This document shows, in pieces, positions 25,847 through 51,155 of a DNA stretch of 64,000 nucleotides; position 1 is the stretch's first letter, and each line of letters opens with the position of its first letter. Both the position numbers and the translations under genes were made by a program. The stretch comes from a virus (lineage: Duplodnaviria > Heunggongvirae > Uroviricota > Caudoviricetes): IMG/VR virus record IMGVR_UViG_3300029957_000005, positions 1-64,000 of that record. One strand, written 5' to 3'. The notes beneath the pieces were generated by a model. That model was not told where the DNA came from. It saw only the letters and a program-made list of their open reading frames with translations, and made no database searches.

Positions 25847-26434
25847 ATGAAACTGATCATGATCTACGGCCGCATGAATCCAATCCACGAAGGCCACGCC
25901 AAGATGCTCCTCCAGGTCAAGAGGCGAGCGCACCAAGAAGGCGCCGACTTCAAGGTCTTCCTGACCCAGACCAAGGACAACGACAAGAACCCTCTCGGCT
26001 ACAAGGACAAACTCAGGTTCCTCCGACTCGTGGTCGGAGTCGCTCCGACGGACGAAGGCTATGAGACCAATAATCTCTTCGGTCTCGTTCGCGAACTCTC
26101 AGAGCAGTACTCCGAGATCGAGCTGGTCTTCGGTGGAGATCGCTACAAGACCTTTGAGCCTCTCATGGTCAAATATCAGGACACATTCAAGTGTCCAGTC
26201 TTCGTAAGCAACTTCGCCGACCGAGATAAATATCCCTATAACGCGACAGAGATGCGCAAGCTGGCTGTCGAAGGGAACTACGAGGACTTCATGTCGAAGT
26301 GCCCGTCCATGTTTACCTCGACTCAGAAGATACAGCTGTTCACTCTGGTCTCCGTAGGATTGACCAATACTGTTGATGGACGTCACGACCGAAAGCATAG
26401 AGCAGCAAGAGTACCTTCAGAGAGCGAGGAATAA
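25847..26434 (+). CDS. HxGH-motif nucleotidyltransferase (NMN/NaMN adenylyltransferase or cytidylyltransferase-like)
   Basis: MIYGRMNPIHEGHAKML = (H/T)xGH class I nucleotidyltransferase motif. Confidence 0.65.
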   Translation: MKLIMIYGRMNPIHEGHAKMLLQVKRRAHQEGADFKVFLTQTKDNDKNPLGYKDKLRFLRLVVGVAPTDEGYETNNLFGLVRELSEQYSEIELVFGGDRYKTFEPLMVKYQDTFKCPVFVSNFADRDKYPYNATEMRKLAVEGNYEDFMSKCPSMFTSTQKIQLFTLVSVGLTNTVDGRHDRKHRAARVPSESEE

Positions 26435-27497: not shown

Positions 27498-28352
27498 ATG
27501 ATGAAGAAGCTTTTTGCTGTCGCCTTTCTTTTGATGGCGTCCCTCTCCCTTGCTGCATGCGGTAAGGTCCCAGCCGGCAACGTCGGCGTCAAAGTCTATC
27601 TCCTCGGCTCCGCCAAGGGCATCGACAACGAAGTCCTAGGACCTGGTCGCTACTGGGTCGGTTGGAACGAAGAACTGTTCATCTTCCCGACCTTCACCCA
27701 GAACAAGACCTGGGAAGCCAATGGTGAAGACAAGTCCTTCACCTTCCAGACCGCCGAAGGCATGGTGGTCGGCGCAGATCTCGGCATCTCCTATGCCGTG
27801 GAGCCGGACAAGGTCTCTACGATCTTCGCCAAGTATCGTCAAGGCATCGACGAGATCACGGACATCTACCTCCGAAACATGGTCCGCGATGCTCTTGTCA
27901 CCGAAGGATCCAAGCTCCGAGTCGAGTCGGTCTACGGCTCCGGCAAGGAAGATCTGATGAAGGCCGTCGAACTCAGAGTTCGAGAACAGGTCGAACCGAT
28001 CGGTCTCAAGGTCGAGCGCATCTATTGGGTCGGTCAGCTCCGACTCCCAGCCGAAGTTCTTGAGAAGATCAATGCCAAGGTCAACGCCGACCAGATCACT
28101 TCTCAGAAGACAGCCGAGGTCGAACAGGCCAAGGCAGATGCCAAGAAGAAAGAAGCTGAAGCCGAAGGCGACAAGAACGCTGCAATCACCCGAGCAGAAG
28201 GTGAAGCATCAGCCAACCGAATCGTCGCCGAGTCCCTCACCGATCCTCTCGTCAAGTACAAGTCGATCGAAAAGTGGGATGGTGCTCTTCCGAAGTTCAC
28301 CGGCTCCAGTGCCGTACCGTTCATCGACACCACCAAGGCCATCGGCCAGTAA
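27498..28352 (+). CDS. SPFH/Band-7 (prohibitin/HflKC-like) lipoprotein
   Basis: Signal peptide with lipobox LSLAAC. SPFH-like core GPGRYWVGWNEELFIFPTFTQ...; Ala/Lys/Glu-rich coiled-coil C-terminus typical of HflK/C. Confidence 0.7.
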   Translation: MMKKLFAVAFLLMASLSLAACGKVPAGNVGVKVYLLGSAKGIDNEVLGPGRYWVGWNEELFIFPTFTQNKTWEANGEDKSFTFQTAEGMVVGADLGISYAVEPDKVSTIFAKYRQGIDEITDIYLRNMVRDALVTEGSKLRVESVYGSGKEDLMKAVELRVREQVEPIGLKVERIYWVGQLRLPAEVLEKINAKVNADQITSQKTAEVEQAKADAKKKEAEAEGDKNAAITRAEGEASANRIVAESLTDPLVKYKSIEKWDGALPKFTGSSAVPFIDTTKAIGQ

Positions 28353-30948: not shown

Positions 30949-31407
30949 ATGGCTGCTCGTCTCTACATTGCCCTGCGCTCGGACCTACTCGGAATGTCTC
31001 CGGGTCGTGCAGCAGCTCAAGCTTCCCACGGGACTTCTACCTTCCACGAGAAGTTCAATTCTCTGCCCGAGACCAGCTTGACGTACAGCTTGAAGCGAGC
31101 TGTCAACGAGTGGAAGGAAGAAGCCGAAGGGTTCGGGACGGCGATCGTCCTCAAAGCGACCTACGGAGAGATCCTGGATCTCCAGGACCAGGCGGTCTTG
31201 GCTCGAGCTGAGAACTCCGATACTTCGAAGGACAATTTCTATTTTCGTCGGATCATCGATCCTCAGTACTTCTACAAGGGTCCTGGTGAACTCTTCGAGG
31301 CCAAGGACGTCCTGACCGGAGCAGTTGTCTTCATTCCGGACGAATCTCGAGAAGTCGAAGAAGTCGGTCGACTCTTCGAAAAGATCTACGCTCTCCCGCT
31401 TTTCTGA
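30949..31407 (+). CDS. PTH2-family peptidyl-tRNA hydrolase
   Basis: N-terminus RLYIALRSDLLGMSPGRAAAQASHGT matches the PTH2 core (vvRtDLkMgkGKiaAQcsHa). Confidence 0.6.
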   Translation: MAARLYIALRSDLLGMSPGRAAAQASHGTSTFHEKFNSLPETSLTYSLKRAVNEWKEEAEGFGTAIVLKATYGEILDLQDQAVLARAENSDTSKDNFYFRRIIDPQYFYKGPGELFEAKDVLTGAVVFIPDESREVEEVGRLFEKIYALPLF

Positions 31408-32572: not shown

Positions 32573-32875
32573 ATGGATCGTATTACCTCTCTCAAGGATT
32601 TGGACGCCTTCATCGGAAAGGCCGTGACCATCGTGGTCACCTTCAAGCCTCACCAGATGGCGACCATCAAGCTCAACAAACTCTGGGTTTCTGAAGGCAA
32701 TCACTGGGACTTCCATCCGGGCTGCTTCGGTGGCTGGCACTTTGAACTCGAGAAGGCCACCGGATCCTACAGCCGTCCGAACTCCATGGCCGGCCGACTC
32801 GAAGAGCATCTGATCAACATCGGTGCCAAGGTCAAGGTCATCACTGTGGATGCGACCAAGAAGGCTTCACGATGA
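32573..32875 (+). CDS. hypothetical protein
   Basis: RBS AGGAG 8 nt upstream; codon bias. Confidence 0.5.
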   Translation: MDRITSLKDLDAFIGKAVTIVVTFKPHQMATIKLNKLWVSEGNHWDFHPGCFGGWHFELEKATGSYSRPNSMAGRLEEHLINIGAKVKVITVDATKKASR

Positions 32876-33411
32876 CCGACGTCTGCTTCTCTGGTGGCGC
32901 CGTCGGTGCTGACACTCTGTTCGGCGAGCTTGCTGCAAAGGCCGGCCATCACGTCTGCCACTATCACTTCAATCCGAAGTTCAAGAACCGTCCGAACTTC
33001 AAGATCCTGACTGAGACCGAACTCGGGTTCGCAGCCAAGTATCTTCTCCGCGCCAACAAGACCCTGAAGCGTCGAGTTCCACATCCGGACGAATTCGCCT
33101 ACAATCTCCTCGCCCGAAACTACTACCAGGTTCGAGACACCACCTGCGTCTATGCAGTCGGGACTCTCTGGGACGGGAAGATTCAGGGCGGGACTGCATG
33201 GGCGATTCAGATGTTCATCGACTGCACCATGGATCCGACGGTCTTCTTCTTTGATCAGATGGGTCGCGGTTGGCTGTCCTACGACAAGATGGAAGATCAG
33301 TGGTGCTCCATTCTCCAGCCGGCGCATCCGCACGGTTACTACACAGGAATCGGAACCCGCGGAATCAACGAAGAAGGCGAAAAAGCCATAAGAAAGCTGT
33401 TTACTTCATAG
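32872..33411 (+). CDS. Rossmann-fold nucleotide-binding protein with SGGAxGADT motif (SLOG/DprA-like, tentative)
   Basis: VCFSGGAVGADTLFGELAAKAG resembles the DprA/SLOG signature SGxAxGxDxxAH..A...G. Confidence 0.45.
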   Translation: MTDVCFSGGAVGADTLFGELAAKAGHHVCHYHFNPKFKNRPNFKILTETELGFAAKYLLRANKTLKRRVPHPDEFAYNLLARNYYQVRDTTCVYAVGTLWDGKIQGGTAWAIQMFIDCTMDPTVFFFDQMGRGWLSYDKMEDQWCSILQPAHPHGYYTGIGTRGINEEGEKAIRKLFTS

Positions 33412-35909: not shown

Positions 35910-36124
35910 TGGACCAGCTGATCGCTGCTCTCCAGGTGTTTCGTGGACACCTCTCCGGATACCAACTGACGTATCCGACCTACTGCTCCCACGAGGTTCT
36001 CGAAGTCGTCTGCATCGATGAACCCGATAAATTTACCGAGGAAGAACTCAAGATCCTCGACGCCGCCGGCTTCGAATACGATGATGCCGGTACCTGGAAA
36101 TCCTACAGATTTGGAAGCTGCTGA
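35909..36124 (+). CDS. hypothetical protein
   Basis: ATG overlapping upstream stop (TGATG). Confidence 0.4.
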   Translation: MDQLIAALQVFRGHLSGYQLTYPTYCSHEVLEVVCIDEPDKFTEEELKILDAAGFEYDDAGTWKSYRFGSC

Positions 36125-36125
36125 C

Positions 36126-36524
36126 ATGGAAGACTCTGAGACGCCTCGCACCCTCCGCGAAATCCTCGAAGACGCGGAGGCTCGCATCAGCCAGTACAAA
36201 CACCCGAACATCGATGAAGCCAAGGATCGCCTCAACGATCTCCTCGTCGAAGCTGGCCTCGGGAACATCAGTCACGACACCATCGAATATCTCTCAATCG
36301 GACAAGAGAAAGTTTATCTCCTGACTCGATATTCGATCAGATCCTGCGAACAAGAAGATCGGTTCGAGTTTCCAACCTCGGTGATCGATGCTCAAGACCC
36401 GATCGCCGCCATCAAGTCCTTTGCGAAGGGTCAGCGGATCACCGAAGCTCGACGTCGTTTCGCCGAAGCGACCCAAGAGTGGACTGATGCCAGGAACCAC
36501 CTGGAAGAAATGCTCAAGTCCTAA
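36126..36524 (+). CDS. hypothetical acidic protein
   Basis: ATG right after upstream stop. Confidence 0.45.
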   Translation: MEDSETPRTLREILEDAEARISQYKHPNIDEAKDRLNDLLVEAGLGNISHDTIEYLSIGQEKVYLLTRYSIRSCEQEDRFEFPTSVIDAQDPIAAIKSFAKGQRITEARRRFAEATQEWTDARNHLEEMLKS

Positions 36525-36550
36525 TCCCTCCAACAGAAAGTCAAAAGCAT

Positions 36551-37243
36551 ATGCTCTCGTACTTCAATCGGGTCGGAGACAATCCGATCACTGAATCCCT
36601 GGTGGCCTCGATAGGCCTGATGGTCATCATCTACGGTGTCTCGGCCCTGATGGGTGTGGACATCTCCTGGAACCCGATCGAGATCTCCGCGGTCTGGACC
36701 TCCTTCGTCTGCACCTACCTCTGCGTCGTCCAGAGCCGCTTCAACTATGTGGTCGGCGTGATCACCACAGCCCTCTACTCCTATCTCTTCTACCAGTCCC
36801 ATCTGGTCGGTTCGATGGTCCTGAACCTTTATCTCATCCCGACCCTGATCTATGGATGGTTCATCTGGGGACCTGACAACAATGCCAAGCCGGTCCAATG
36901 GGTCAAGTGGAAGTACATCCCGGTCTACGTCCTTGCTACCTTCGCCACCTATCTCGGCGCCCTCTGGATCGTCCAATACTTCGGCGGAAGCATGGCGCCT
37001 CTTGACTCCTGGATCCTGATCGGCACGATCCTTGCTCAGTACCTCCTGGACCGAAAGAAACTCCAAACCTGGTTCATCTGGGTCGCCGTGAATGTGGTCT
37101 CGATCTACGTCTACTACAACTCCGGCCTCTACCTGGTCGCCATCCAATACATCTTCTTCCTCCTGAACACCGTCTTCGGATGGTACATGTGGAACAAGTC
37201 CATGCAGCCTCAGCCTGCATTTGGTCGACTCCCAGCCGAATAA
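36551..37243 (+). CDS. pnuC: PnuC-family nicotinamide riboside/NMN transporter
   Basis: Polytopic membrane protein. YGWFIWG, QTWFIWVAVNVVSI and FGWYMWN match PnuC conserved W-rich motifs (E. coli YGWYAW, ENWLLWVIINVISV). Confidence 0.65.
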   Translation: MLSYFNRVGDNPITESLVASIGLMVIIYGVSALMGVDISWNPIEISAVWTSFVCTYLCVVQSRFNYVVGVITTALYSYLFYQSHLVGSMVLNLYLIPTLIYGWFIWGPDNNAKPVQWVKWKYIPVYVLATFATYLGALWIVQYFGGSMAPLDSWILIGTILAQYLLDRKKLQTWFIWVAVNVVSIYVYYNSGLYLVAIQYIFFLLNTVFGWYMWNKSMQPQPAFGRLPAE

Positions 37244-37247
37244 GCTG

Positions 37248-37276
37248 TTTACATTCCTCTGAATCCTGTGTAAGTT
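37248..37276 (+). promoter_or_regulatory. sigma70-like promoter TTTACA-N17-TAAGTT embedded in 10-bp palindrome CCTCTGAATC/GATTCAGAGG
   Basis: Palindrome arms at 37256-37265 and 37289-37298 flank the -10 and +1. Confidence 0.4.
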
Positions 37277-37307
37277 CGACTTATATGAGATTCAGAGGAA
37301 TTCCGAA

Positions 37308-37556
37308 ATGCCACGCAATATCGAAATTGTCTCTTACGATCTGACCTTCTTCAAAGGTGAAGAGACCAAGGTCCTGTCCTTCTCGACCTACGTGGATCGT
37401 GATGTCTATGATGATCCGAAAGAAGCGATCATCGATCACATCTCCGACAAGATCACCCTCATCCAGGGAGATGCCAACATCCCAGGGTTCCTCCCCAAGT
37501 TCAAGACCCTGAGGATCTGGAGATCTCACAAGCCCTCCGACCTCGATTTGAAATAG
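37308..37556 (+). CDS. hypothetical protein
   Basis: ORF track. Confidence 0.5.
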   Translation: MPRNIEIVSYDLTFFKGEETKVLSFSTYVDRDVYDDPKEAIIDHISDKITLIQGDANIPGFLPKFKTLRIWRSHKPSDLDLK

Positions 37557-37563
37557 GACAAGC

Positions 37564-38616
37564 ATGCGCGGACTTCTAATGATGACTGCCCTCCTTCCCA
37601 CGGAGGGTCACAGAAACTTTATCGAGTTCGCTCGGAACTTCATGGAGATCAAAGGTGGTCAGTTGACCGTCATGGTCAACACCAGAGGATTTGAGCCGAT
37701 CTCAGGTGGTCTTCGCCTTCGTTGGCTGACCGAAGAATTCAAAGGTCCGGTGGACAACGGTCAGATCGACATCGTAGTCACTGACATCGACACCGCTCCT
37801 CAGAACCCGGAAGATCATCCGGACTTCTGGAACTGGTGGGCTCAAACCACCTGGGACTGGACCGGAAGCAAGAACTACGACTACTTCTTCGCCTCGGAAG
37901 CGTACGGCCTGGAGATGTCCAAGCATCTCGGCCAAGACTGTCGCTTCGTTCCATACGACATCGCCAGGGACATCCTCCCGATCTCAGGAACAGTGGTTCG
38001 TCGCGGTGGTCCGGAGTTCTGGGATCAGATCATTCGTCCAGCTCGGAATCACCTCGGTCAGAAGCTCGGATCCTTCTGCATGTTCGGTCAGGAGTCCGTC
38101 GGCAAGACCACCATCGCCAAGGCCCTAGCCAAGCAGAACAGTGCAGCATCCTTCCAGCCCGAATGGGCCCGCCCTTATCTGGAGACCGTCGGCCCGGATC
38201 TGAACCCGAATGTCATGGACATCATCTTCGCTGGTCAACTCGCCCAGATGAAGGCCACGGCCGGACAGACCATGGTCACCTATCGGGACACGGACCTCCT
38301 GAGCACCATCGGATATCAGAGACTCGCCGGGTGGAAGGTTCCGTCCTATTGGAACGATCAGTTCGACTCTTTCAGGTCCTCCCACTATTTCCTCCTCCCG
38401 GATGATGTCCCATTCGAACCGGATCCTCTTCGCTATGGTGGAGACAAGAGGGAGACGGACACGAAGTTCTGGTATGATCTCCTGATAGAATACAGCTGCA
38501 ACTTCACCGTCGTCCCCAGAGGGACCCTGGCGTCCAAGATCGACTACATCTTCGAGAAGTCAGCCGGTCTCGTCCACAAGAACTGGGAACCCATTCGAGA
38601 ATTCAAGAGGACCTGA
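37564..38616 (+). CDS. NadR-like protein with P-loop kinase domain (ribosylnicotinamide kinase-like; N-terminal adenylyltransferase-like region)
   Basis: Walker A FGQESVGKTTIAKALA matches the NadR/NRK motif GxESxGKS[T]. Adjacent to pnuC as in bacterial pnuC-nadR operons. N-terminal region is divergent. Confidence 0.55.
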   Translation: MRGLLMMTALLPTEGHRNFIEFARNFMEIKGGQLTVMVNTRGFEPISGGLRLRWLTEEFKGPVDNGQIDIVVTDIDTAPQNPEDHPDFWNWWAQTTWDWTGSKNYDYFFASEAYGLEMSKHLGQDCRFVPYDIARDILPISGTVVRRGGPEFWDQIIRPARNHLGQKLGSFCMFGQESVGKTTIAKALAKQNSAASFQPEWARPYLETVGPDLNPNVMDIIFAGQLAQMKATAGQTMVTYRDTDLLSTIGYQRLAGWKVPSYWNDQFDSFRSSHYFLLPDDVPFEPDPLRYGGDKRETDTKFWYDLLIEYSCNFTVVPRGTLASKIDYIFEKSAGLVHKNWEPIREFKRT

Positions 38617-38960
38617 TGTTCAATTTCAAACGCTCGGATTGGTTCAAGAAAGGCCGCAAGAAGGTCGAACCTGAGCCCGACTACTCCGGGATCGAATCTC
38701 CGATGAAGTATATGGTCGTTCCGAAGAGTCCTCATCGCTGGGATGTCTATCAGATCAATCGAAAGGACGCCGAGTTCTTGACCAAGAAGAAGGGTCGTGA
38801 GCCCTCACTCGAGGAATGGACCTTCGTCATCTACAGCACCTCCGAGAACGCAGCCAAGGGCTACATCTACGAGAAGCTGGAGCAAGATCGCCGAGATGTC
38901 TTCGAGATGCACAGGGACCTCGCCTTTCGTCGAGATAATCAGCCGTACGAAGTCGAATAA
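38616..38960 (+). CDS. hypothetical protein
   Basis: ATGA overlap. Confidence 0.5.
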   Translation: MFNFKRSDWFKKGRKKVEPEPDYSGIESPMKYMVVPKSPHRWDVYQINRKDAEFLTKKKGREPSLEEWTFVIYSTSENAAKGYIYEKLEQDRRDVFEMHRDLAFRRDNQPYEVE

Positions 38961-38989
38961 ATACAAGCGGTACGAGAAAGGAACAAATC

Positions 38990-39412
38990 ATGAATCTCCG
39001 TCCGATAATCCTGGGAGCAGTCTTTGCACTGGCTACCCTGTTCGCCGTGAATGCAAGTGCCCACACCTACGACGGAGGTCCTGATGCTCCCGTCCAGATC
39101 CAAGAAAATCAGCCGATCACTCTCCAGCAGCTCCTCGACGGGACCCTCAAGGGCGTCGCCGACAAGATGAACGTCACCGCCTCCGAACCCAAGAAGGAGA
39201 CGATGACGATCTACGCCAACGTCATCAATCAGATCTTCGGTGTCGGCGTCCTCAACGGAACGATCGATGCCTATGCGATCGAAGGCTCCGACGGCAATCT
39301 CCGAGTTCGTCTCATCAAGGGCGACCAGAAGGCCGAACAGACCGTGAACTTCGGCAAGGTTCAAACGGACGCCTTGTTCTTCATGGAGACCTCCCCGACC
39401 TTCGGAAAATAA
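38990..39412 (+). CDS. secreted hypothetical protein (signal peptide)
   Basis: MNLRPIILGAVFALATLFAVNASA|HTY. AATAAATA (late-promoter-like) about 28 nt upstream. Confidence 0.55.
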   Translation: MNLRPIILGAVFALATLFAVNASAHTYDGGPDAPVQIQENQPITLQQLLDGTLKGVADKMNVTASEPKKETMTIYANVINQIFGVGVLNGTIDAYAIEGSDGNLRVRLIKGDQKAEQTVNFGKVQTDALFFMETSPTFGK

Positions 39413-39415
39413 GAG

Positions 39416-39444
39416 TTTACAACTCACGAAGGATGTAGTAGACT
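39416..39444 (+). promoter_or_regulatory. sigma70-like promoter TTTACA-N17-TAGACT followed by 10-bp palindrome CTGTCTCCGT/ACGGAGACAG
   Basis: Palindrome 39443-39472 overlaps the -10/+1 and contains the SD GGAGA. Confidence 0.45.
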
Positions 39445-39475
39445 GTCTCCGTTGTCAAACAAACGGAGACAGAAC

Positions 39476-39694
39476 ATGGAAATGTCCGAAGCCAAGATGA
39501 ACCACTTCAAAGAAGTCGCTCGTCGCGCTCGTCAAGCTGAAGAGTTCATCGTCGCCGAAGCCAAGAAGATGGGGATCGAGCTGTCTGCCGAATCCGCTGC
39601 CATCTTCCGGAACATCGTCACCGAGATCTACGGTGACAACATGAAGCCGGTTCCCGTCGATCCCGACGAGAATATCGGATCCACAACCCCCTAA
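39476..39694 (+). CDS. hypothetical protein
   Basis: ATG after the palindrome; the ORF-track start at 39452 is a TTG inside the palindrome. Confidence 0.45.
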   Translation: MEMSEAKMNHFKEVARRARQAEEFIVAEAKKMGIELSAESAAIFRNIVTEIYGDNMKPVPVDPDENIGSTTP

Positions 39695-39702
39695 GGAATT
39701 CA

Positions 39703-39903
39703 ATGGAATACGACATAGAATCTGAAGTCCACATCTACGACGGTCGAGGGGAGAAGCTCTCGATCGTCTCAGACCCGGACAGTCTTGGTCTTGTAGTGAT
39801 CAAGGGCAATGACTACTTCGGAGGAGAGATCCAGTTCGACAAAGCCATGCTCGGCGCTGTGATCGAAGGCCTTCAGAAATTCAAGTCGTCCAATGACCTC
39901 TAA
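39703..39903 (+). CDS. hypothetical protein
   Basis: ORF track. Confidence 0.4.
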   Translation: MEYDIESEVHIYDGRGEKLSIVSDPDSLGLVVIKGNDYFGGEIQFDKAMLGAVIEGLQKFKSSNDL

Positions 39904-39913
39904 GGAGAAGAAG

Positions 39914-40429
39914 ATGCCCAAGAAAGTCGTGAAAGTCGCCGAGAACCACGCAGACGAAGCGTTCTACAACGGTGGACCAGCTCCTGCTCCCGCTCCAAAG
40001 GACTACGGTCCAGGACCTCACACAGCCGTGGATGCTGTGGTGATCTTCTCAGACGACTTCGAGGACCACATCCTCGTGATCACCCGCAAGGACGGGACAA
40101 CTGCTCTCCCAGGTGGATTCGTGGATCCGGAAGATGATTCTCTTCTCGCTGCGATCCTTCGTGAGGTCAAGGAAGAGACGGGTCTGGATCTCCTTCAGTA
40201 CTGGAGACAGGAGCCGATCGAACTTCCTTCGATGACCGACAAGAAGCGTGATCCACGAAGCTGGGTCATCTCCCATCCGTTCTTCTTCAAGGTTCGTTCG
40301 AGGGTTCTACCCAAGGTCACCGGAATGGACGATGCCATCGGTGCCAGGTGGGTGGTGGACAATTTGATCGATCACCAGAACTGGTTCCTCGATCATCGTC
40401 AGATCATCAGGAACGCTTTCGAAGCCTGA
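39914..40429 (+). CDS. Nudix hydrolase
   Basis: Nudix box GGFVDPEDDSLLAAILREVKEETGL. AAGGAG RBS 7 nt upstream of ATG 39914. Confidence 0.75.
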   Translation: MPKKVVKVAENHADEAFYNGGPAPAPAPKDYGPGPHTAVDAVVIFSDDFEDHILVITRKDGTTALPGGFVDPEDDSLLAAILREVKEETGLDLLQYWRQEPIELPSMTDKKRDPRSWVISHPFFFKVRSRVLPKVTGMDDAIGARWVVDNLIDHQNWFLDHRQIIRNAFEA

Positions 40430-40511
40430 GATCTACGATCAGAGCCTTCCAGCAGTGGTCCTTATCGAAGACCACTGCTCCGACGAACCGACAGAACAAA
40501 CAGTCATGACC

Positions 40512-40553
40512 GAACCTTCTCGCTATTCTGGCGCAGAAGGTTTGGTTCGTTTG
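40512..40553 (+). terminator. hairpin GAACCTTCT..AGAAGGTT followed by TTTGGTTCGTTTG in the convergent gap
   Basis: A second hairpin AGCAGTGGTC/GACCACTGCT sits at 40451-40479. Confidence 0.3.
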
Positions 40554-40606
40554 TCCACCAGTTAGTCTGTTCAGGAGCCTGGAGCTGGAGCAAAGGGTTT
40601 CGTAGA

Positions 40607-41209
40607 TCATGTCGGCCAGTATGACGGGTTCTGATAGTCAGTTGGAATTGGTGAAGTATCCTTGAGAGCCCTGGCTGCAAAGATGCAGTTCATCTCCCAG
40701 GTCGCTGCTGCCTGACCGAAAGCGAAGACGGTCGGAGCATCCATTGGATTGAGGCTGTTGTCATCGGCGATCCAGACGAAGTCAGTATCTCCTCCGTGCC
40801 AACGATAATTTCCGGCTGCAGCTCCTGCACCGACAGCAAAGCCAGCCAGAGTGGCCATATAGGCAATGCGAGCCTTGGAAATTTCGTCCATGGCATAGGA
40901 CTTACCGAAGAACTTGAAGCCGGTAGAGATCCTCGCATCCCTCTCGACGTCCACGTCCGTGGAATCAATCACATGAATGCTCGTGGTCCAGACGTATTTT
41001 GGAACTCCATCAGTGACCACCACCGACTGGGAGACACCGATCTCTCCGACCGGAATCAGATCTGCTGGTAGGATCTCTGCAAGACGATAGTCCTCGTTCT
41101 CCCATCCGGCTTCTGCTGGAGAGATCACATCAGTCCCGATCGTGAACCGGCTGTTGGTCATCACTTCCTGGAGGACGAGAGAGTCAGACTTTCTGATGAG
41201 GGCTAGCAT
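40607..41209 (-). CDS. hypothetical protein, last gene of minus-strand fiber module (possible adhesin or fiber chaperone)
   Basis: Gly/Ala-rich segment GFAVGAGAAAGNYRWHGG. 26-nt overlap with the upstream gene. Confidence 0.5.
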   Translation of the reverse strand: MLALIRKSDSLVLQEVMTNSRFTIGTDVISPAEAGWENEDYRLAEILPADLIPVGEIGVSQSVVVTDGVPKYVWTTSIHVIDSTDVDVERDARISTGFKFFGKSYAMDEISKARIAYMATLAGFAVGAGAAAGNYRWHGGDTDFVWIADDNSLNPMDAPTVFAFGQAAATWEMNCIFAARALKDTSPIPTDYQNPSYWPT

Positions 41210-41837
41210 TCTTTATCCTGTTGTAGAGTTCGATGTCCTGCTCATAGTATTTATGCACAGCCTTCAGGGAGGCGGCATCATAGAAGGTGGCCACGAAATC
41301 CTTGGTCTTCTGATCTCGTAGAGATCGGTTCTGGAACTTCAGAGGCTCCTTGACTCGGATCCCATGATCCCTCACGAAGGTCTCAATGTGATCACTGATT
41401 CTATCGAACAGCCACCACTCACCTCCCTCCGGAAGGAATGTGAACTGAAGCTGATTCTGCCAAGGGAAGTCCGGATAGAATCCGTGAGCCGAGACAATCC
41501 GTCTGAAGTCCTGGACGCCTGGGGAGCCTATTAGGGCCTGTTTTGCTCGATAGAGATAGAGACTCAGAACTCTCTCGACCGGCTCCCTGACGACACCTAC
41601 GACCTTCTCTGATGCATCCAAGAGTCCGTGCTTGATAGCATAGGTCGAGTCCATATGAGAATTGTCGGCATGAACCGGATCCATGTTCTGGGACCAGGTT
41701 TCGTCCTCAGTCTCGTAGTAATTCGAGAAGGAGTCCTCCGGCTGAACAACGTTGTCGATGAAGAAGCGCCTGATCGAAGTCGAAGCGTTCTTCGGAACGT
41801 TGATGAAGTTGAAGCCGAGCCTCTTGATCTTGATCAT
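41184..41837 (-). CDS. sulfotransferase-like protein (PAPS-dependent family)
   Basis: 5'-PSB-like FINVPKNASTS and 3'-PB-like VVREPVERVLSLY (compare RDPxERxxSxY). Start at internal ATG (ATGA overlap); the ORF-track N-terminal extension to 41945 overlaps the upstream gene. Confidence 0.5.
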   Translation of the reverse strand: MIKIKRLGFNFINVPKNASTSIRRFFIDNVVQPEDSFSNYYETEDETWSQNMDPVHADNSHMDSTYAIKHGLLDASEKVVGVVREPVERVLSLYLYRAKQALIGSPGVQDFRRIVSAHGFYPDFPWQNQLQFTFLPEGGEWWLFDRISDHIETFVRDHGIRVKEPLKFQNRSLRDQKTKDFVATFYDAASLKAVHKYYEQDIELYNRIKNASPHQKV

Positions 41838-42424
41838 CTGAGGAGGAAGGTGTTGAGAGTCAGCCGGATCCCGGAGGTCGACTTGTAGGAGTGCCAGGTG
41901 GTTCCGGTCTCGGCTGCGAAGACCATGGTCCTGTTCGGCTTCCATTCGATCTGCTTGACGAACTTCTTGTCTCGGTCGTAGAGGAGGGTTCCGTCTCCTG
42001 TCTCCGGATAGAGATAGGTCACGGCCGAGAGAACCTTGTCTTCGACTTCATCGTGGATCGGGTGCTCGGACTCCTTGAGGCAGAGGATGACCTCACCGTA
42101 GACTTCAAGAGAGTCGTAGTCTCGATGGTTCGGAAAGTGCTTGAGAAGATAGCTAGGATTCCTGGACTGAAGGAGCTTCCTGGTCTCCGGAAACTTGTCG
42201 CTGGTGTAGAGATTACGAGCCGAGATGAAAACGTCTCCACTCGTCTTGGTCACGAACTCTGATCGTTCAGTCTTGACCTTGGTCAAGATCTCTCGAACGG
42301 CCGAGTCGGTCTGGACTTGGTCATAGTATCCATCGATGACTTCGTGCGGCCAAGGATCATACGAGAACATTGGAGCCGGCAGCATGATCGAGTATGCGCT
42401 TTTCGATTCTTTCTTCATAACCAT
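41834..42424 (-). CDS. 2OG-Fe(II) oxygenase-like protein (tentative)
   Basis: HPIHDEVED (HxD) ... TTWHSY (distal His) ... GIRLTLN (RxS/T), spaced as in the 2OG-oxygenase jelly roll. Confidence 0.4.
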   Translation of the reverse strand: MVMKKESKSAYSIMLPAPMFSYDPWPHEVIDGYYDQVQTDSAVREILTKVKTERSEFVTKTSGDVFISARNLYTSDKFPETRKLLQSRNPSYLLKHFPNHRDYDSLEVYGEVILCLKESEHPIHDEVEDKVLSAVTYLYPETGDGTLLYDRDKKFVKQIEWKPNRTMVFAAETGTTWHSYKSTSGIRLTLNTFLLR

Positions 42425-43214
42425 CTTCTTTCACATTGATGCATAGTTTGGTGGAGTACCAGGTCAGGAACTTGCCGAGATCGTTCCTGGACACAGGAGG
42501 GATATCCTTGAGTTCGGCCGCGCTCTTGATTGTAGGAACCAGTTCCGAGAAGATCATCGGATCGTAGGTGGCACAGGGCTTGTCGGCAAGCATGGCGTTC
42601 AGGGACACCGAACTCCAGGAACTGAAGACTCTATCAGCCTTCTCGACCAGGTGATTGAGATTGTAGGAGGCATCGATGAAGATCGCATACTCGCTGTCCA
42701 GACCTACGATCTTGTTCAGAGCGAGAGGATGCCTCTTGAAGACGGTGTAGGACTTGCTCTGGGTGGCATAGGCTGCTGCGTCCACGATGTGATTGTACTC
42801 GATCCCTACAGGGTCCTGCATCACGAACAAATTGTAGGAGGACGGAAGTTCCGGGACTCCTTCCGGCTGAGGATATTCGGTGTTGGATCGAGAGCGATAG
42901 AGATCCACAACCGACTGGTCGAGAGTGGTGTTCTTCCAATAGTTCCACTGAGGATTGTTCTTGTCGATGTAGGCCCGATTCGGAGAAAAGATGAAGTACT
43001 CTAGATTCGGAATGCCGAAGCGCCAAGTCAGGACGTTGGTGAACTCCTGAGCGTCGTCCGGATCCGCGAAGATGCAGTTCTTGAGATCCCTCTTCTCGAG
43101 GATAGAATCCACGAGAGTGGCTACTTTGAGAGTCGGCGAAAAGGATGAATGCATCTCTTTATACTGGACGACCTTGTTGATCCACAGGAGGACGGTGTTT
43201 CTATTCGGGGTCAT
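42357..43214 (-). CDS. hypothetical protein, possible glycosyltransferase / capsule-biosynthesis-like
   Basis: 285 aa. HPLALNKIVGLDSEYAIFIDASYNLNHLV is weakly reminiscent of KpsS/KpsC-type transferases. Low confidence. Confidence 0.45.
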   Translation of the reverse strand: MTPNRNTVLLWINKVVQYKEMHSSFSPTLKVATLVDSILEKRDLKNCIFADPDDAQEFTNVLTWRFGIPNLEYFIFSPNRAYIDKNNPQWNYWKNTTLDQSVVDLYRSRSNTEYPQPEGVPELPSSYNLFVMQDPVGIEYNHIVDAAAYATQSKSYTVFKRHPLALNKIVGLDSEYAIFIDASYNLNHLVEKADRVFSSWSSVSLNAMLADKPCATYDPMIFSELVPTIKSAAELKDIPPVSRNDLGKFLTWYSTKLCINVKEDGYEERIEKRILDHAAGSNVLV

Positions 43215-43504
43215 TCGAGATCCGGAACTGCTGCAAGGATGCGAGCGAATTGATCGTCGGTGAGAGTCTGATCGTTGTATGAAGCCACAATGTCTCCCTC
43301 TCTAGATTTCTGATAGGCCTGGACGATGTCGTCGGTCCAAACGGTGGCGTGAGCCTGGTTCACAGCATCTCTGAGGGCCGGGATGACAAAGTCTGAGGCT
43401 GGAAATCGAATCCACTTGTTGTCACGAACCAGAGCCGGAGGGATCTCGAAAGAGCAGTTGTCGACCTCGATGTGGAGAATTTTGAATGGGCCTTCGTAGG
43501 TCAT
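43211..43504 (-). CDS. hypothetical protein
   Basis: ATGA overlaps on both sides. Confidence 0.5.
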   Translation of the reverse strand: MTYEGPFKILHIEVDNCSFEIPPALVRDNKWIRFPASDFVIPALRDAVNQAHATVWTDDIVQAYQKSREGDIVASYNDQTLTDDQFARILAAVPDLE

Positions 43505-44370
43505 GGCGAGATGAACCTCAGGCTTTGGGCCAGATTGCTGTAGAAGTAATAGGTCGTCGTAGTTCCTCCGCCACGTCCACCGCTGCTTGTAGTTACCGCT
43601 TCATAGCTTGTATCGGAAGTGAAAGTTCCGGCCGCGTCCATGACGTGGAGAGCCATTTGTCTAGCGGTGGAGTTGTAGTTTTCGTTGGTCTCGATGATTC
43701 TGGTGTTCGCAGGTCCACCATGTCCAATTGTTGGGATGCTGGTATCGGCTCGGCTCAGTCCGCCCTTGATGAACACGATGTCGTTGGTAGTCACGGAAAG
43801 AGAAGTAGAGCTGTGAGACGTATTCAACGCCTGACCACCTCCATAGAACGAATTCGAGATGCCTCCCCACTTGCCTGGAAGAACATAGACCTGCTGGGAG
43901 TTCGTTCCACCACCGGTGCCCTTGTTGAAGGTCACTGCAATGGATCTGATATTACCGAAGCCAATCGGAATTTGGAACAGACAGAGCTTGAAGTTAGATC
44001 CGACGCCAGTGGTCTTGGAATAGAGGATCGTTTCGTCCGTAGCCGAATAGGCTCCACCGTCGGCTGAGACGACGGTCGTTCCTGGAGAATTTCCTTCATT
44101 GACAGTAAGGACGGTGGTCCATCGACTGAACAGGTTCATGGTGGACTGCGGATAGGTTATGGTTCCAGAGACGGCCGTGGAAGCCTGATAGGTCGAGCTG
44201 AAGCCTTCGGCGAAGGGTCCTGCTCCGGCGTTGGACTCAAAGCCTTGGGCAATCGAAGTCTTGGTGATCAGCTGATTTCTGGATGCAATCGTCTTGATCG
44301 CAGAAATCGCCTGGGCCAGGGTGAGCATCTTGAATCCTGGCGACGTAATAGGCATCAGAGGAAAGCTCAT
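43501..44370 (-). CDS. Gly/Ser/Thr-rich fiber-associated protein (possible distal fiber or receptor-binding protein)
   Basis: AAGGAGAG RBS. GGGT/GGRGGG stretches and beta-rich composition. Confidence 0.55.
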   Translation of the reverse strand: MSFPLMPITSPGFKMLTLAQAISAIKTIASRNQLITKTSIAQGFESNAGAGPFAEGFSSTYQASTAVSGTITYPQSTMNLFSRWTTVLTVNEGNSPGTTVVSADGGAYSATDETILYSKTTGVGSNFKLCLFQIPIGFGNIRSIAVTFNKGTGGGTNSQQVYVLPGKWGGISNSFYGGGQALNTSHSSTSLSVTTNDIVFIKGGLSRADTSIPTIGHGGPANTRIIETNENYNSTARQMALHVMDAAGTFTSDTSYEAVTTSSGGRGGGTTTTYYFYSNLAQSLRFISP

Positions 44371-44380
44371 TGAACTCTCC

Positions 44381-45427
44381 TTATACGCACTTGACGACGT
44401 TGGCTAGTTTGAGACCGGACATGCTGGTCAGGAAGATCATGAATTGGGATCCGTTGGTGGTGTCGAAGGAGTCTCCGACAACATTGTGGAAACCGGACAT
44501 AGTGACGGCTCCGGCTGTCGCACTGTTGACCAAACGAACGACCATAGAAACTGTTGCCGCTGATGGTGCAGCGAGAGTGAATGCTCCGCCATTCGTGGCC
44601 AGACGGAAGTTGCTTCCGGACTGAGATGGAGTATAGGTTACTCCGGACTTGGATCCATCATTGACTTCTGTGCCCTGGTAGCCTGCGGCACCGATCGTCG
44701 CATCAGCATTGACGACCACAGCATTTGAGAGCTTGGTCGCTTCGGTGGTCGTATATCCTTGGTAGCCGCCGGACCAGGACAGAGAGATGTTGCCGGATGT
44801 GGTCACCGCAGATCCGGCGGTCAGGCCAGTAGGAGCCGAGATGCCGACCGATGTCACAGTTCCTGTGTTTGCAGTAGCGCCTGAAGCGATGCCAGCAAGC
44901 TTGGTGGCCTCGGTGGTTGTATAGCCTTGGTAGCCAGCGGCATAGACGATGGCCAGAGTTCCTGATCCGGTGACTGGGCCGCCTGAGACTGAGAAGCCGG
45001 TCGGGACTGAGGCTTGGACAGAAGTGACGGTGCCTGGCTGGGCGCCAGAGGCAATGCCTGAGAGCTTGGTCGCTTCAGCAGAAGTATATCCCTGATAGCC
45101 AGCCTGATAGGTGATGGCTAGGGTGCCTGAGACCGTGATCGGAGAGTTAGCTACAGAGAGACCGGTTGGGACGGTCATTGCGACTGAAGTCACGGTTCCG
45201 GAGGTGATAGTCGGCTTGCCTGTTAGATCGCTGTAGGCACCGGTTTTGCCGGCCAAGGAGATGTCGGACAGCTTGGCCATCGCAACAGAAACACTGGTCG
45301 AAGTGGCCATCTCCAGACGACCTTCGTCGGTAACGAATAGGAGCTCATAAGCCGTCAGGGACGAGGATCCCTGGAGGGCAGTCAACGCCGCTCGTGTTCC
45401 TCTCTTGGGAAGAATTTTGTTTGCCAT
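44381..45427 (-). CDS. tail-fiber-like protein with three tandem ~56-aa repeats
   Basis: N-terminus MANKILPKRGTRAALTALQGSSSLTAYELLFVTDEGRL is a typical fiber N-terminal motif. Repeats GTVTSV..VPTGL......SGT..I.Y.AGYQGYT..EATKL.GIASGA x3. Confidence 0.7.
   Translation of the reverse strand: MANKILPKRGTRAALTALQGSSSLTAYELLFVTDEGRLEMATSTSVSVAMAKLSDISLAGKTGAYSDLTGKPTITSGTVTSVAMTVPTGLSVANSPITVSGTLAITYQAGYQGYTSAEATKLSGIASGAQPGTVTSVQASVPTGFSVSGGPVTGSGTLAIVYAAGYQGYTTTEATKLAGIASGATANTGTVTSVGISAPTGLTAGSAVTTSGNISLSWSGGYQGYTTTEATKLSNAVVVNADATIGAAGYQGTEVNDGSKSGVTYTPSQSGSNFRLATNGGAFTLAAPSAATVSMVVRLVNSATAGAVTMSGFHNVVGDSFDTTNGSQFMIFLTSMSGLKLANVVKCV
44700..45200 (-). repeat. three tandem ~170-nt repeats inside fiber gene 44381..45427
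   Basis: Recurrent GAGCTTGGTCGCTTCGG..GTATATCC(T/C)TGGTAGCC on the + strand at about 44721, 44881 and 45061. Confidence 0.6.
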
Positions 45428-45451
45428 ACCGAACTATGTATCCTTGGAACC

Positions 45452-46474
45452 TTAGAAGGTTCCACCGTCGAGAGTGACACCGTCGATCGTTCCACCGGTG
45501 ATTGCAACTGCTGAGGCGCTCTGGTAAGCCATGGTTCCGGCCGATGCCAGATCCGCAACGTCGATGACGACAATGCCTGTGTAGCCGTTGACCGAGACCA
45601 CCTGATCGGTGTTGTCGATCTTATCCCAGGCTGCACCGTCCGAAACGATCCAGTCTCCGATTGCCCATTCTGAAATCCCGTCGACTGTCGTTGTTCCGGC
45701 AGTGGTGACGATGTAGTACCAACCCTTGTTTCCAGAGGCGGCCGCAGGGATGGTTGGGCTGTTGGTAGTTGCATTCCATCCACCCTGATAGTTCATTCCA
45801 CCTAGGACTGCATCAGGCAGCTGGGAGGTTGGGACCTTTCCGGATCCATCCAGACCGGCGACTCCGAGAGAAGCACCGATCTGAGTGATGTCGATCTTTG
45901 CGTCCAGAGCAGTCTGAAGTCCGGAGACGGTAGAGATTGCCTGGGTTCCGGTGTGATTTCCACGAGACAGGAGATATGCATCGGACTGGTTGGCCGTTGC
46001 ACCGGAGGCGATGCCTGAGAGCTTGGTGGCTTCGGCTGAAGTGTAGCCCTGGTAGCCGGTGTCGTAGGTGATCGAGATCGTTCCGGACGTGGTGACCGGG
46101 GATCCGGAAACGACGAGTCCTGCTGGGACCGAGACGGCGATCGAAGTGACAGTTCCGGCTCCGGCCCCGGCCATTGCAGCGTTGACCCATGCGACTGTGG
46201 TCAGGTCGTCGTTTGCAGAAGGAGTACCGGAGGTCTTTGGAACAGAACCGAAGGTCTTGATGCCTCCGACTGTCTGATTTCCGGAGAGCATGACCGTTCC
46301 GCCTGGTCCACCGACCGGGATGACCGTGGTTGCGGTTCCACCTCCTCCGCCTGTGCCCTTACCGTAGTAGAGGATGTCGTCTACTTCGTTGTATGCGAGT
46401 TCTGCGTTCAGAAGACTCGAAGGAGCTCCAGGTGCGCCGCCTGAACGACGCTTGATACGAATTGGTGATGCCAC
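45452..46474 (-). CDS. tail-fiber-like protein with poly-Gly hinge and one copy of the shared repeat
   Basis: N-terminus LAYNEVDDILYYGKGTGGGGG. Repeat copy GTVTSIAVSVPAGLVVSGSPVTTSGTISITYDTGYQGYTSAEATKLSGIASGA. Confidence 0.7.
   Translation of the reverse strand: MASPIRIKRRSGGAPGAPSSLLNAELAYNEVDDILYYGKGTGGGGGTATTVIPVGGPGGTVMLSGNQTVGGIKTFGSVPKTSGTPSANDDLTTVAWVNAAMAGAGAGTVTSIAVSVPAGLVVSGSPVTTSGTISITYDTGYQGYTSAEATKLSGIASGATANQSDAYLLSRGNHTGTQAISTVSGLQTALDAKIDITQIGASLGVAGLDGSGKVPTSQLPDAVLGGMNYQGGWNATTNSPTIPAAASGNKGWYYIVTTAGTTTVDGISEWAIGDWIVSDGAAWDKIDNTDQVVSVNGYTGIVVIDVADLASAGTMAYQSASAVAITGGTIDGVTLDGGTF
45988..46156 (-). repeat. fourth copy of the ~170-nt fiber repeat, in the upstream fiber gene
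   Basis: CTTGGTGGCTTCGGCTGAAGTGTAGCCCTGGTAGCC at 46021. Confidence 0.5.
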
Positions 46475-49695: not shown

Positions 49696-49806
49696 ATGCA
49701 CAATCCCTACGCAAAGTCCCTTTCGTCCAAGCTCTTCCAGAAGAAAGCCATTCGCGCCAAGAAGGGTCGTGGTTCCTACACCCGTCGCGACAAGCACGCA
49801 AAGTGA
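49696..49806 (+). CDS. small highly basic protein (36 aa), not in ORF track
   Basis: MHNPYAKSLSSKLFQKKAIRAKKGRGSYTRRDKHAK with C-ending codons. Ends in AAGTGA overlapping the next gene. Confidence 0.35.
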   Translation: MHNPYAKSLSSKLFQKKAIRAKKGRGSYTRRDKHAK

Positions 49807-49817
49807 GAATTGATCAC

Positions 49818-51155
49818 ATGATCGTCGATATGTGCGACATCCCCTACGGGTGGACCTGCGGTTTTCCTCGTCCGATCTTCGATACGGACAAAGCTTCTCC
49901 GGAAGCGATGAGGGACTATTTCCGACGTCACGGCGTCGTCGAAGAGCCTCTCCATCTCCGTTACTTCCACTCGGAGATCAATGTCACAGATCTCAAGGAG
50001 AACTATCGGATCGCCATCCCAGGTTTCGTCTATGAAATCCTTGCCGTCCTGAACCAGTGCGGTCATCAGGCCTATGCGGTCGGTGGTGCGGTTCGTGACT
50101 CCTTCCTGAATCGTCCAATCAAGGACTGGGACGTTTCCACCTCCGCCACCCCTCAGCAGGTGACCAACATCTTTGAGAACCTGATGGTTCCTGTTCATCC
50201 GACCGGGATCGCCCATGGGACGGTCACCGTGGTCTTCGGTGGTGAGAACATCGAGGTGACGACCTTCCGGACCGATGTGAACACCGATGGTCGTCATGCC
50301 GAGGTCGCCTTCTCGGACAACATCGTCGAGGACGCCTATCGTCGGGATTTGACGATCAATGCTCTCTATGCCGATCGGGACGGTCGAGTCTTCGATCCGA
50401 CCACCGAAGGTCTCTATGACCTGATGAACCAGAAGATCAGAATGGTCGGTTCCCCGAGGGATCGGATCAACGAGGACACCCTTCGCATCCTGAGAGCGGT
50501 TCGGTTCGCCGGTCAGCTGGACTTCCAGATCGAAGCCCACACAGCCTACGTGATTCACAACTGTGAAGCCGACGTCCTTAGGAACCTGAGTCTGGAGAGG
50601 ATCATCTCCGAGCTGGAGCGCATCCGTCCATCCCACGTCAAGGTCATTGCCAAATTCCTTGCTCCGGTGTTCGGGGTCCAGCATCTCCACCTGCCTTACG
50701 AGGAGCACATCCTTGAAGAGCTTTCGAAGATGCCGTGGTTCTATCTCTACATCTTCGCCAAGGTCCCTGGTCAGTGGTTCACCGCCAATCCTGTGATCTC
50801 CAAGGACGTCAAGAGAGCAGTCAAGCTCCTCCTGAACATGTCCTATGGAGTCCCGATGGACTCCTGGGACGCAGCTCAGCGCTTCGGCCTGGAGGAGATT
50901 CGTCTCGTCCAGAAGTTCTATCTCCTGAAGCATCCGAGTGGAGAGGTTCCGAAGATGCCTTTCTTCCACACTCTACCGGTAGCGCTTGTCAAGAACCCAG
51001 TCGGATCCGCCGACTTCATAGAGGAATTCAAGGGCCCTGAGCTCGGGAAGATCCTCGATATTGCCAACACTCTTCACGCCGAATTCAGGTTCAGCCTGAA
51101 CAAAGAAGAATTGTCAAAACTCGCAAGGATAAAGTATAATCACTTCTATGGATAA
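49818..51155 (+). CDS. tRNA nucleotidyltransferase (CCA-adding enzyme, class II head domain)
   Basis: AVGGAVRDSFL...DWDVST (GGxVRD/DxD) and RRDLTINALY motifs. Confidence 0.8.
   Translation: MIVDMCDIPYGWTCGFPRPIFDTDKASPEAMRDYFRRHGVVEEPLHLRYFHSEINVTDLKENYRIAIPGFVYEILAVLNQCGHQAYAVGGAVRDSFLNRPIKDWDVSTSATPQQVTNIFENLMVPVHPTGIAHGTVTVVFGGENIEVTTFRTDVNTDGRHAEVAFSDNIVEDAYRRDLTINALYADRDGRVFDPTTEGLYDLMNQKIRMVGSPRDRINEDTLRILRAVRFAGQLDFQIEAHTAYVIHNCEADVLRNLSLERIISELERIRPSHVKVIAKFLAPVFGVQHLHLPYEEHILEELSKMPWFYLYIFAKVPGQWFTANPVISKDVKRAVKLLLNMSYGVPMDSWDAAQRFGLEEIRLVQKFYLLKHPSGEVPKMPFFHTLPVALVKNPVGSADFIEEFKGPELGKILDIANTLHAEFRFSLNKEELSKLARIKYNHFYG

Follow-up and report, generated by a model that had tools for sequence, protein, structure and literature searches.

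A divergent pnuC-nadR gene pair of a T4-like phage that probably encodes a NARP3-type nicotinamide riboside salvage module

Introduction

The 64-kb stretch of viral DNA analyzed here (IMG/VR record IMGVR_UViG_3300029957_000005, positions 1 to 64,000; hereafter, the window) carries a gene for a PnuC-family membrane protein and, next on the same strand among family-assigned genes, one for a NadR-like protein. This pair raises the question of whether a phage of this kind can import nicotinamide riboside (NR) and rebuild nicotinamide adenine dinucleotide (NAD+) from it, and whether such a route would be new. An initial annotation, made from the letters of the sequence alone, had proposed NR import, phosphorylation, and adenylylation as a distinct solution to NAD+ depletion by host defenses. 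The mechanism it outlined is that of NARP3; the distinctness did not stand, as a 2024 preprint had already predicted the pathway and a 2026 study demonstrated it. In their 2024 preprint, "Phages reconstitute NAD+ to counter bacterial immunity," Osterman et al. observed that phage NadR usually shares an operon with PnuC and raised the possibility that PnuC-NadR constitutes an additional route of NAD+ reconstitution. The name NARP3 was given to this route by Yan et al. (Sci Adv, 12 Aug 2026; PMC13464706). In that study, Bas30_87 bound and imported NR, and Bas30_86, whose structures were solved, turned NR into NAD+ via nicotinamide mononucleotide (NMN); together, and dependent on NR, the Bas30_87/86 pair restored both NAD+ and the growth of phages facing Sir2-HerA.

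The PnuC-plus-NadR route is therefore sound but already known, and the pair in the window is a divergent new example of it, not a new kind of system. We consider the pair likely to be a NARP3-type NR salvage module. This reading is based on the families to which the two proteins belong, their domain architecture, the conservation of their motifs, and the conserved linkage of their genes, from which we infer the substrates, the activities, and the anti-defense role of the module. All open reading frames (ORFs) named in the initial annotation were present in the window (coordinates are collected in Table 1).

Results

The first gene of the pair encodes a protein that belongs to the PnuC family. 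It matched Pfam PF04973 (NMN_transporter) at an E value of 3.5e-39, with 135 bits against a cutoff of 27.3 and coverage of profile positions 2 to 175 of 175. Against TIGR01528, the equivalog model for the PnuC NR transporter, it scored 76 bits, above the cutoff of 42.45. The structure of PnuC from Neisseria mucosa (4QTN) was matched across residues 29 to 218 (6.3e-11), and the polar residues N65, Q163, N181, and N206 were the same as the aligned residues of 4QTN, at positions that we take to line the NR pocket of that structure. These matches bear out the PnuC call of the initial annotation and place the membrane protein within the family. Identity was 83% to PnuC of the closest relatives (IMG/VR loci L006 to L008) and 26% to the Bas30_87-like PnuC of Salmonella phage S126 (BLASTP, 2e-12).

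The second protein resembled NadR over the full length of its two predicted catalytic domains, an NMN adenylyltransferase (NMNAT) and a ribosylnicotinamide kinase (RNK). TIGR01526 (nadR_NMN_Atrans) matched residues 14 to 317 (1.8e-24), and Pfam AAA_28, a family that covers the NadR kinase domain, matched residues 171 to 323 (7.3e-19). A PDB sequence search returned NadR-type chains only, namely 9x6f/9x6h, Lactococcus NadR (6gye), and Escherichia coli NadR (8x7f). When a profile of 44 homologues was compared by hhalign with the Bas30_86-type protein of phage S126, the two aligned at 99.7% probability (E = 1.9e-26) over 297 columns, beginning at residue 1 of the S126 template. Together with the TIGR01526 match, this alignment upholds the assignment of the protein to NadR, with NMNAT and RNK domains, that the initial annotation had put forward for a profile check. 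The AlphaFold2 model, built on the 44-homologue alignment, had a mean predicted local distance difference test score (pLDDT) of 94.9. In a Foldseek search with this model, the best eight PDB matches were all NadR and spanned both domains, with TM-scores (TMq) of 0.59 to 0.72 (8x7f at 0.72, followed by 1lw7 and the 6gy* entries). By comparison, thymidylate (dTMP) kinases matched the C-terminal half only (TMq, ∼0.38), and archaeal NMNATs matched the N-terminal half only. No helix-turn-helix (HTH) domain was found in the window protein, in contrast to enterobacterial NadR, which has an N-terminal HTH repressor domain.

The kinase motifs were complete. The Walker A motif GQESVGKTT, from which the initial annotation had recognized the RNK domain, occupied residues 175 to 183, in agreement with the TIGR01526 and AAA_28 matches, and was accompanied by D242-T-D244 and the LID-region arginines R290 and R296. 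Residues G175, G180, K181, D242, D244, R290, and R296 were invariant in the 44 homologues and common to E. coli NadR and the Bas30_86-like protein. Of the two NMNAT motifs, the second was present as ISGTVVR (residues 140 to 146), and its ISxTxxR pattern was invariant in the 44 homologues. The first motif deviated from the canonical GxFxPxHxGH: it reads MTALLPTEGH, such that G15 and H16 are retained, the first His is replaced by Thr (T13-E-G-H16), and the GxF element is missing. For comparison, canonical NadR reads GKFYPLHTGH at this site, and the Bas30_86-type protein of S126 reads GKFAPLTRGH, which is likewise TxGH but keeps GKF. Since K10 and F11 of the S126 protein agree with the published numbering of Bas30_86, the first His is likewise replaced by Thr in the experimentally active Bas30_86-type enzyme. 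The clade consensus MTALxPTxGH, R146 of the ISGTxVR region, and the NMN-loop residues W89 and W92 were invariant or nearly so among the 44 homologues, a pattern that argues for purifying selection on the active site. Because the Bas30_86-type enzyme carries TxGH too and the motif is near-invariant in the clade, we take the NMNAT domain of the window protein, with moderate confidence, to be active. The idea that the TxGH substitution marks an inactive NMNAT domain was set aside, given the same substitution in the validated Bas30_86-type enzyme.

The two genes lie on one strand, pnuC first, with 320 bp between them. To place this arrangement, 55 IMG/VR loci encoding NadR relatives were retrieved, and linkage was counted at the 36 loci in which NadR was at least 30% identical to the window protein. 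A pnuC homologue on the same strand, ending at most 1.5 kb upstream of nadR, was found at every one of these (36/36). The association between pnuC and nadR is not due to chance. In the closest relatives, L006 to L008, NadR was 58% identical and the gap between the two genes was 9 bp; the order of pnuC, nadR, the same four small genes, and then a 143-aa Nudix protein was syntenic with the window. More broadly, homologues of the window NadR numbered more than 400 at an E value of 1e-5 or lower. The same NadR clade was detected in cellular genomes at up to 35% identity, including Saccharibacteria, Hyphomonadaceae, actinomycetes, and Anabaena, and at 65 of 80 cellular loci pnuC ended no more than 500 bp upstream of nadR. 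Because the arrangement is so widespread in cellular loci, the phage module looks like a captured bacterial NR salvage operon.

The gap between pnuC and nadR in the window is filled by an 82-aa ORF with coding-like codon usage (score of +0.49 in frame versus −0.66 and −0.83 out of frame) and no Pfam or PHROG match. This ORF was missing from L006 to L008, and since the two genes are 9 bp apart there, we regard it as a lineage-specific insertion. Inserts of 300 to 1,400 bp between pnuC and nadR recurred in ∼10 other viral loci. Downstream of nadR, the four small genes likewise had no Pfam or PHROG match, and their order was kept in L006 to L008 at 40 to 73% identity. One of their products, 140 aa long, begins with a signal-peptide-like N terminus (MNLRPIILGAVFALATLFAVNASAH); it was 48% identical in the relatives and had no family match.

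Table 1. Positions of the module and of other features in the 64-kb window
Feature	Positions	Strand	Length (aa)	Basis or remark
HIGH-motif nucleotidyltransferase	25847–26434	+	195	H14-E-G-H17 (HEGH); Pfam CTP_transf_like, 1.3e-6
SPFH/Band-7 membrane-scaffold protein	27498–28352	+		early region
PTH2-type peptidyl-tRNA hydrolase homologue	30949–31407	+		early region
DprA-like/SLOG-type protein	32872–33411	+		phrog_768 "DprA-like," 2.1e-16
PnuC-family transporter, predicted NR importer	36551–37243	+	230	Pfam, TIGR01528, 4QTN
ORFan between pnuC and nadR	37308–37556	+	82	coding-like codon usage, no family
HTH-less NadR-type enzyme	37564–38616	+	350	predicted NMNAT, residues ∼1–165; predicted RNK, residues ∼170–320
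Four small genes between nadR and the Nudix gene	38616–39903	+	114, 140, 80, 66	coding-like codon usage
Product with signal-peptide-like N terminus (one of the four)	38990–39412	+	140
Stand-alone Nudix hydrolase	39893–40429	+	178	homologous to the ADP-ribose pyrophosphatase half of NadM-Nudix/NatV
N-terminal extension of the Nudix ORF	39893–40000	+	∼35	Pro/Ala-rich
Minus-strand gene block	40607–46474	−
CCA-adding enzyme/poly(A) polymerase head domain protein	49803–51155	+		4.9e-33

Proposed pathway and alternative explanations

Taken as a pathway, PnuC in the host inner membrane would admit NR, and the RNK domain of the NadR-type enzyme would phosphorylate it with ATP to NMN, which would thereby be trapped in the cell. 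The N-terminal NMNAT domain would then adenylylate NMN to NAD+. We judge this conversion of NR to NMN to NAD+ to be quite likely for the window pair. The outcome would be a supply of NAD+ independent of host de novo synthesis and of phosphoribosyl pyrophosphate (PRPP), by which NAD+ could be upheld during infection, including under depletion by NADase defenses (SIR2-HerA, Thoeris, DSR, and some CBASS). An anti-defense role is suggested by analogy; the module could equally serve general NAD+ provisioning.

Three alternatives concern the biochemistry of the two proteins. That the 350-aa protein is a P-loop kinase of some unrelated type, such as a deoxynucleoside monophosphate (dNMP) kinase, might be entertained on the ground that AAA_28 was the sole domain above Pfam thresholds; this reading, which the initial annotation had named as its own possible undoing, is refuted by the full-length NadR matches in profile and structure searches, NadR making up all of the top eight structures over both domains while dTMP kinases aligned to the C-terminal half only, and we assign it virtually no probability. 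A subtler alternative holds that the protein is an NR kinase only, its N-terminal domain having lost adenylyltransferase activity, with the step from NMN to NAD+ left to a host enzyme or to the 195-aa HxGH protein encoded elsewhere in the window. The replacement of the first HxGH histidine (TEGH) and the MTA in place of GxF speak for it, as do the absence of a Pfam CTP_transf_like match in residues 1 to 165 and the very presence of a separate HIGH-family nucleotidyltransferase gene. We nevertheless find it improbable: a Bas30_86-type enzyme with TxGH is reported to make NAD+, the NMNAT motifs are near-invariant across the 44 homologues, the AlphaFold2 model superposes on NadR across both domains, and the cyanophage "cytidylyltransferase" family to which the 195-aa protein belongs also occurs in phages without pnuC or nadR. 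Finally, the membrane protein might carry another substrate, such as thiamine, riboflavin, or a deoxynucleoside, with its linkage to nadR incidental. Transporters of substrates other than NR also occur in the PnuC family, and of the three residues through which Bas30_87 is reported to contact NR, two differ in the window protein. Against this stand the score above the cutoff of the NR-specific TIGR01528 model, the four residues shared with the N. mucosa NR transporter, and the near-universal linkage of pnuC and nadR in viruses and cells, which together make a different substrate very unlikely.

Other observations weigh against assigning the pair to NARP3 or against a role in counter-defense. 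The NadR-like protein fell below the equivalog cutoffs of TIGR01526 (86.6 versus 341 bits) and PRK08099 (37.2 versus 201 bits). Both models are built on enterobacterial and Haemophilus-type NadR, and the low scores are the mark of a divergent clade. The window pair is only ∼25% identical to the validated Bas30 pair, and a number of the residues at which mutation impaired that pair are not conserved: relative to Bas30_86, K10 is T8 in the window protein, F11 is A9, E80 is I75, G89 is F88, D115 is A113, D275 is S273, and E230 falls in a gap; relative to Bas30_87, N45 is S51 and Q94 is L99. Mutagenized residues that were kept include P84, W90, F110, S112, and I141 of Bas30_86 and N180 of Bas30_87. 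Because many or most of the unconserved residues also differ in E. coli NadR, we regard them as lineage-specific and not family-defining. The demonstration of NARP3 itself used heterologous expression and not the native phage (PMC13464706). Moreover, since the same operon is common in bacteria, the module may be a mere metabolic booster. Under this last alternative the biochemistry would be the same, and the genes would form an auxiliary metabolic cassette that raises NAD+ for replication, for instance in NAD-limited or slow hosts, and not a dedicated counter-defense. The clade's pnuC-nadR operon is widespread in cellular genomes, including those of auxotrophic Saccharibacteria, which suggests plain salvage; the module sits among nucleotide-metabolism genes (ThyX, dCMP deaminase, and a MazG-like protein); and earlier phage papers interpreted pnuC-nadR in terms of NAD+ metabolism. 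On the other hand, the homologous Bas30 module overcomes Sir2-HerA, and, taken as a class, phage NAD+ genes show enrichment as counter-defenses (Osterman et al. 2024). We consider a purely metabolic cassette possible but rather unlikely, and the two roles are not mutually exclusive.

Comparison with known NAD+ systems

With NARP3 of Bas30 (Escherichia phage TrudiRoth and T5-like Epseptimavirus phages), the window shares the PnuC family and the HTH-less NadR family with NMNAT and RNK domains kept, the placement of the genes as neighbors on one strand, the TxGH variant, and the predicted NR-to-NMN-to-NAD+ chemistry. The two differ in sequence (identity of ∼25% for NadR and 22 to 26% for PnuC), in gene order (nadR then pnuC in Bas30, pnuC then nadR in the window), and in the phage that carries them, which is T5-like for Bas30 and T4-like for the window; the window alone has the 82-aa inserted ORF and a syntenic downstream Nudix gene. 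Closer counterparts, already annotated, are found in phages of alphaproteobacteria: Sinorhizobium phages phiM12, M7, M19, and N3, Agrobacterium phage Atu_ph07 (gp586/587), and Ochrobactrum phage vB_OspM_OC (p120/p119). These pairs belong to the same clade, with NadR 38 to 40% identical over its full length, PnuC 36 to 52% identical, and the order pnuC then nadR; in phiM12, too, the two genes are separated by a small ORF. They differ in encoding a bifunctional NatV-like NMNAT-Nudix protein elsewhere in the genome, to which OC adds NadV, whereas the window has the Nudix half only and no Nampt within its 64 kb. A pnuC-nadR-nadM cluster was described earlier in gut jumbo phages.

Bacterial pnuC and nadR (NadR of Haemophilus influenzae, Lactococcus lactis, and E. 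coli; PnuC of N. mucosa) agree with the window pair in fold and in both catalytic domains, and cellular genomes with the HTH-less clade have the same operon arrangement. The differences are that enterobacterial NadR bears an N-terminal HTH, while the operon in the window is virus-borne and its NadR HTH-less. As for NARP2, represented by NadV and NatV of KVP40 (Nampt and NMNAT-Nudix), the Nudix protein of the window is a homologue of the corresponding half of NatV-like proteins. Unlike NARP2, the window lacks Nampt, its Nudix is unfused, and the entry substrate would be NR and not nicotinamide plus PRPP. Both routes can also occur side by side: at eight IMG/VR loci (L009, L011, L014, L017, L019, L040, L053, and L056), NadV and a NatV-like NMNAT-Nudix protein were encoded within 10 kb of pnuC-nadR, and these loci combine NARP3-type and NARP2-type NAD+ routes in one island.

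By BLAST (124 hits), Yan et al. placed NARP3 in T5-like phages of Enterobacteriaceae (PMC13464706). The present analysis indicates that an NR-import route to NAD+ is not confined to them. A far larger and deeply divergent clade with the same operon spans T4-like and jumbo phages and many cellular genomes, which increases the proportion of phages potentially able to escape NAD+-depleting defenses and offers divergent enzymes for probing which residues matter. No new question is opened by this, since the idea and its mechanism have been published, as have even close homologues.

The downstream Nudix hydrolase

The Nudix hydrolase that the initial annotation had noted 1.3 kb past NadR was corroborated by Pfam NUDIX (PF00293; E = 4.9e-14), and its ORF begins 1.28 kb past the NadR stop. 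Its best NCBIfam matches were the Nudix halves of bifunctional NMNAT/Nudix models. In the PDB it matched residues 199 to 336 of 2qjo (Synechocystis slr0787; 2.9e-10) and 2qjt from Francisella (1.5e-7), and among phage proteins its best matches were NatV-like proteins, again in their Nudix halves (phiRSL1, phiM12, and others). The NatV-like proteins of the eight IMG/VR loci named above, whose genes are adjacent to NadV, were significantly similar to the window through the Nudix half only. No NMNAT half was found on the 178-aa window ORF or on the 143-aa orthologue of the relatives. PHROG family phrog_395 was matched in its C-terminal half by the window Nudix and in its N-terminal half by the 195-aa protein (1.4e-17). 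The catalytic core REVKEETG was intact, with Asp at the Gx5E position and a one-residue insertion. Because this core is intact and no C-terminal winged HTH was found in the window protein, we regard it as an enzyme and not an NrtR-type regulator. Most likely, it would hydrolyze ADP-ribose (ADPR) or related dinucleotides, by-products of NAD+ cleavage, as an accessory outside the core pathway. Separately, the ORF has a Pro/Ala-rich N-terminal extension (GGPAPAPAPKDYGPGPH) that is not in the 143-aa orthologue, which starts MPKDYGPGPH; the true Nudix start may lie downstream of position 39893.

No Pfam match to Nampt, Adps, or Namat was found among the ∼70 ORFs of the window, and tblastn of the 64 kb with phage NadV gave a best E value of 5 for Nampt. 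Likewise, no NadV homologue was detected in the examined stretches of L006 to L008. The sole mildly unusual feature of this locus is that the Nudix half is retained while its NMNAT partner is missing and no Nampt is seen in the vicinity. One could read it as a three-part system, in which NARP3 of this lineage combines NR salvage with the retained ADPR-pyrophosphatase half of NatV. The Nudix protein would then destroy ADPR or ADPR-derived molecules released by host NADases, whether toxic by-products or immune signals, and NR import would rebuild NAD+ from an external precursor beyond the reach of defense depletion. This proposal draws on the synteny of the Nudix gene with pnuC-nadR, the lack of Nampt in the window, and the failure to detect NadV in the relatives; we hold it to be speculative and, on balance, unlikely.

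Nudix homologues also lie 2 to 3 kb downstream of pnuC-nadR in Saccharibacteria genomes, and the pnuC-nadR-Nudix trio is thus not unique to phages. At these loci (L074, L077, L078, L085, L116, L125, L130, L133, and L137), the Nudix homologue downstream of pnuC-nadR either stands alone (149 to 229 aa) or continues into a fused C-terminal kinase-like domain of ∼300 aa. It may represent an unstudied NAD-salvage accessory.

Genome context and neighboring genes

The window comes from a T4-like phage genome, and the module sits in its early/replication region. Encoded in the window are a gp55-like sigma factor, gp47/gp46-like nuclease subunits, the gp45 clamp, the gp44/62 clamp loader, RegA, a family-B DNA polymerase, UvsX, and a gp41-like helicase. 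Also present are genes for a Dam methylase, a MazG-like pyrophosphatase, ThyX, dCMP deaminase, and an RNA ligase. The polymerase was only ∼33% identical to its counterparts in T4-like phages of cyanobacteria and Rhizobium, and megablast of positions 36000 to 41000 against 50,697 phage records returned zero matches. This low identity and the empty megablast point to an unsequenced lineage. A NadR-like protein identical in sequence is also encoded on a metagenomic contig of 163 kb. The phage is probably not an enterobacterial phage.

Two further proteins had been drawn into the picture by the initial annotation. For the HxGH adenylyltransferase, the ORF and its HEGH motif were found, and neither profile nor fold searches singled out an NMNAT identity. 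The 195-aa protein matched phrog_3041, "cytidyltransferase," at 6.6e-31, and the archaeal NMNAT model at merely 0.004. Its "cytidylyltransferase" family comprises 485 phage records, mostly T4-like cyanophages; the protein had no PDB sequence match, and the homologue search gave only 4 matches. Foldseek of its AlphaFold2 model (pLDDT, 75) matched FMN adenylyltransferase (FMNAT), nicotinic acid mononucleotide adenylyltransferase (NaMNAT), and phosphopantetheine adenylyltransferase (PPAT) about equally, at TM-scores of ∼0.5. With these three folds matching equally, the protein is not assignable as an NMNAT. It lies 10 kb away and was left out of the NAD+ module.

The second of these, the SLOG/DprA-like protein, was recovered with its ORF and a match to phrog_768. 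The PHROG match was its only one, and no PDB sequence was matched. It was 83% identical in the closest relatives and lies ∼4 kb upstream of pnuC in them as in the window. A role in processing ADPR-derived signals has been suggested for viral SLOG domains (Iyer et al. 2022). We rejected the protein as part of the module; its linkage to the NAD genes is synteny shared in the closest relatives only.

Promoter and terminator scans of the 34- to 42-kb region gave results at chance level, and in the Rfam scan neither an NAD+ riboswitch, the pnuC motif included, nor any other RNA was matched. No tRNA genes were found across the 64-kb window, despite which it encodes a protein with a CCA-adding enzyme/poly(A) polymerase head domain. 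Upstream of the module, the early region encodes an SPFH/Band-7 membrane-scaffold protein and a PTH2-type peptidyl-tRNA hydrolase homologue, both of which the relatives have too. Downstream, the plus-strand early region is broken up by a minus-strand gene block, where the sign of the GC skew flips. This block encodes a DUF4376 protein, a sulfotransferase-family protein, and several family-less ORFs, and it gave a weak, below-cutoff match to a 2-oxoglutarate (2OG)-Fe(II) oxygenase. At the equivalent site, the relatives encode a Peptidase_S74 (tail-fiber-type) protein.

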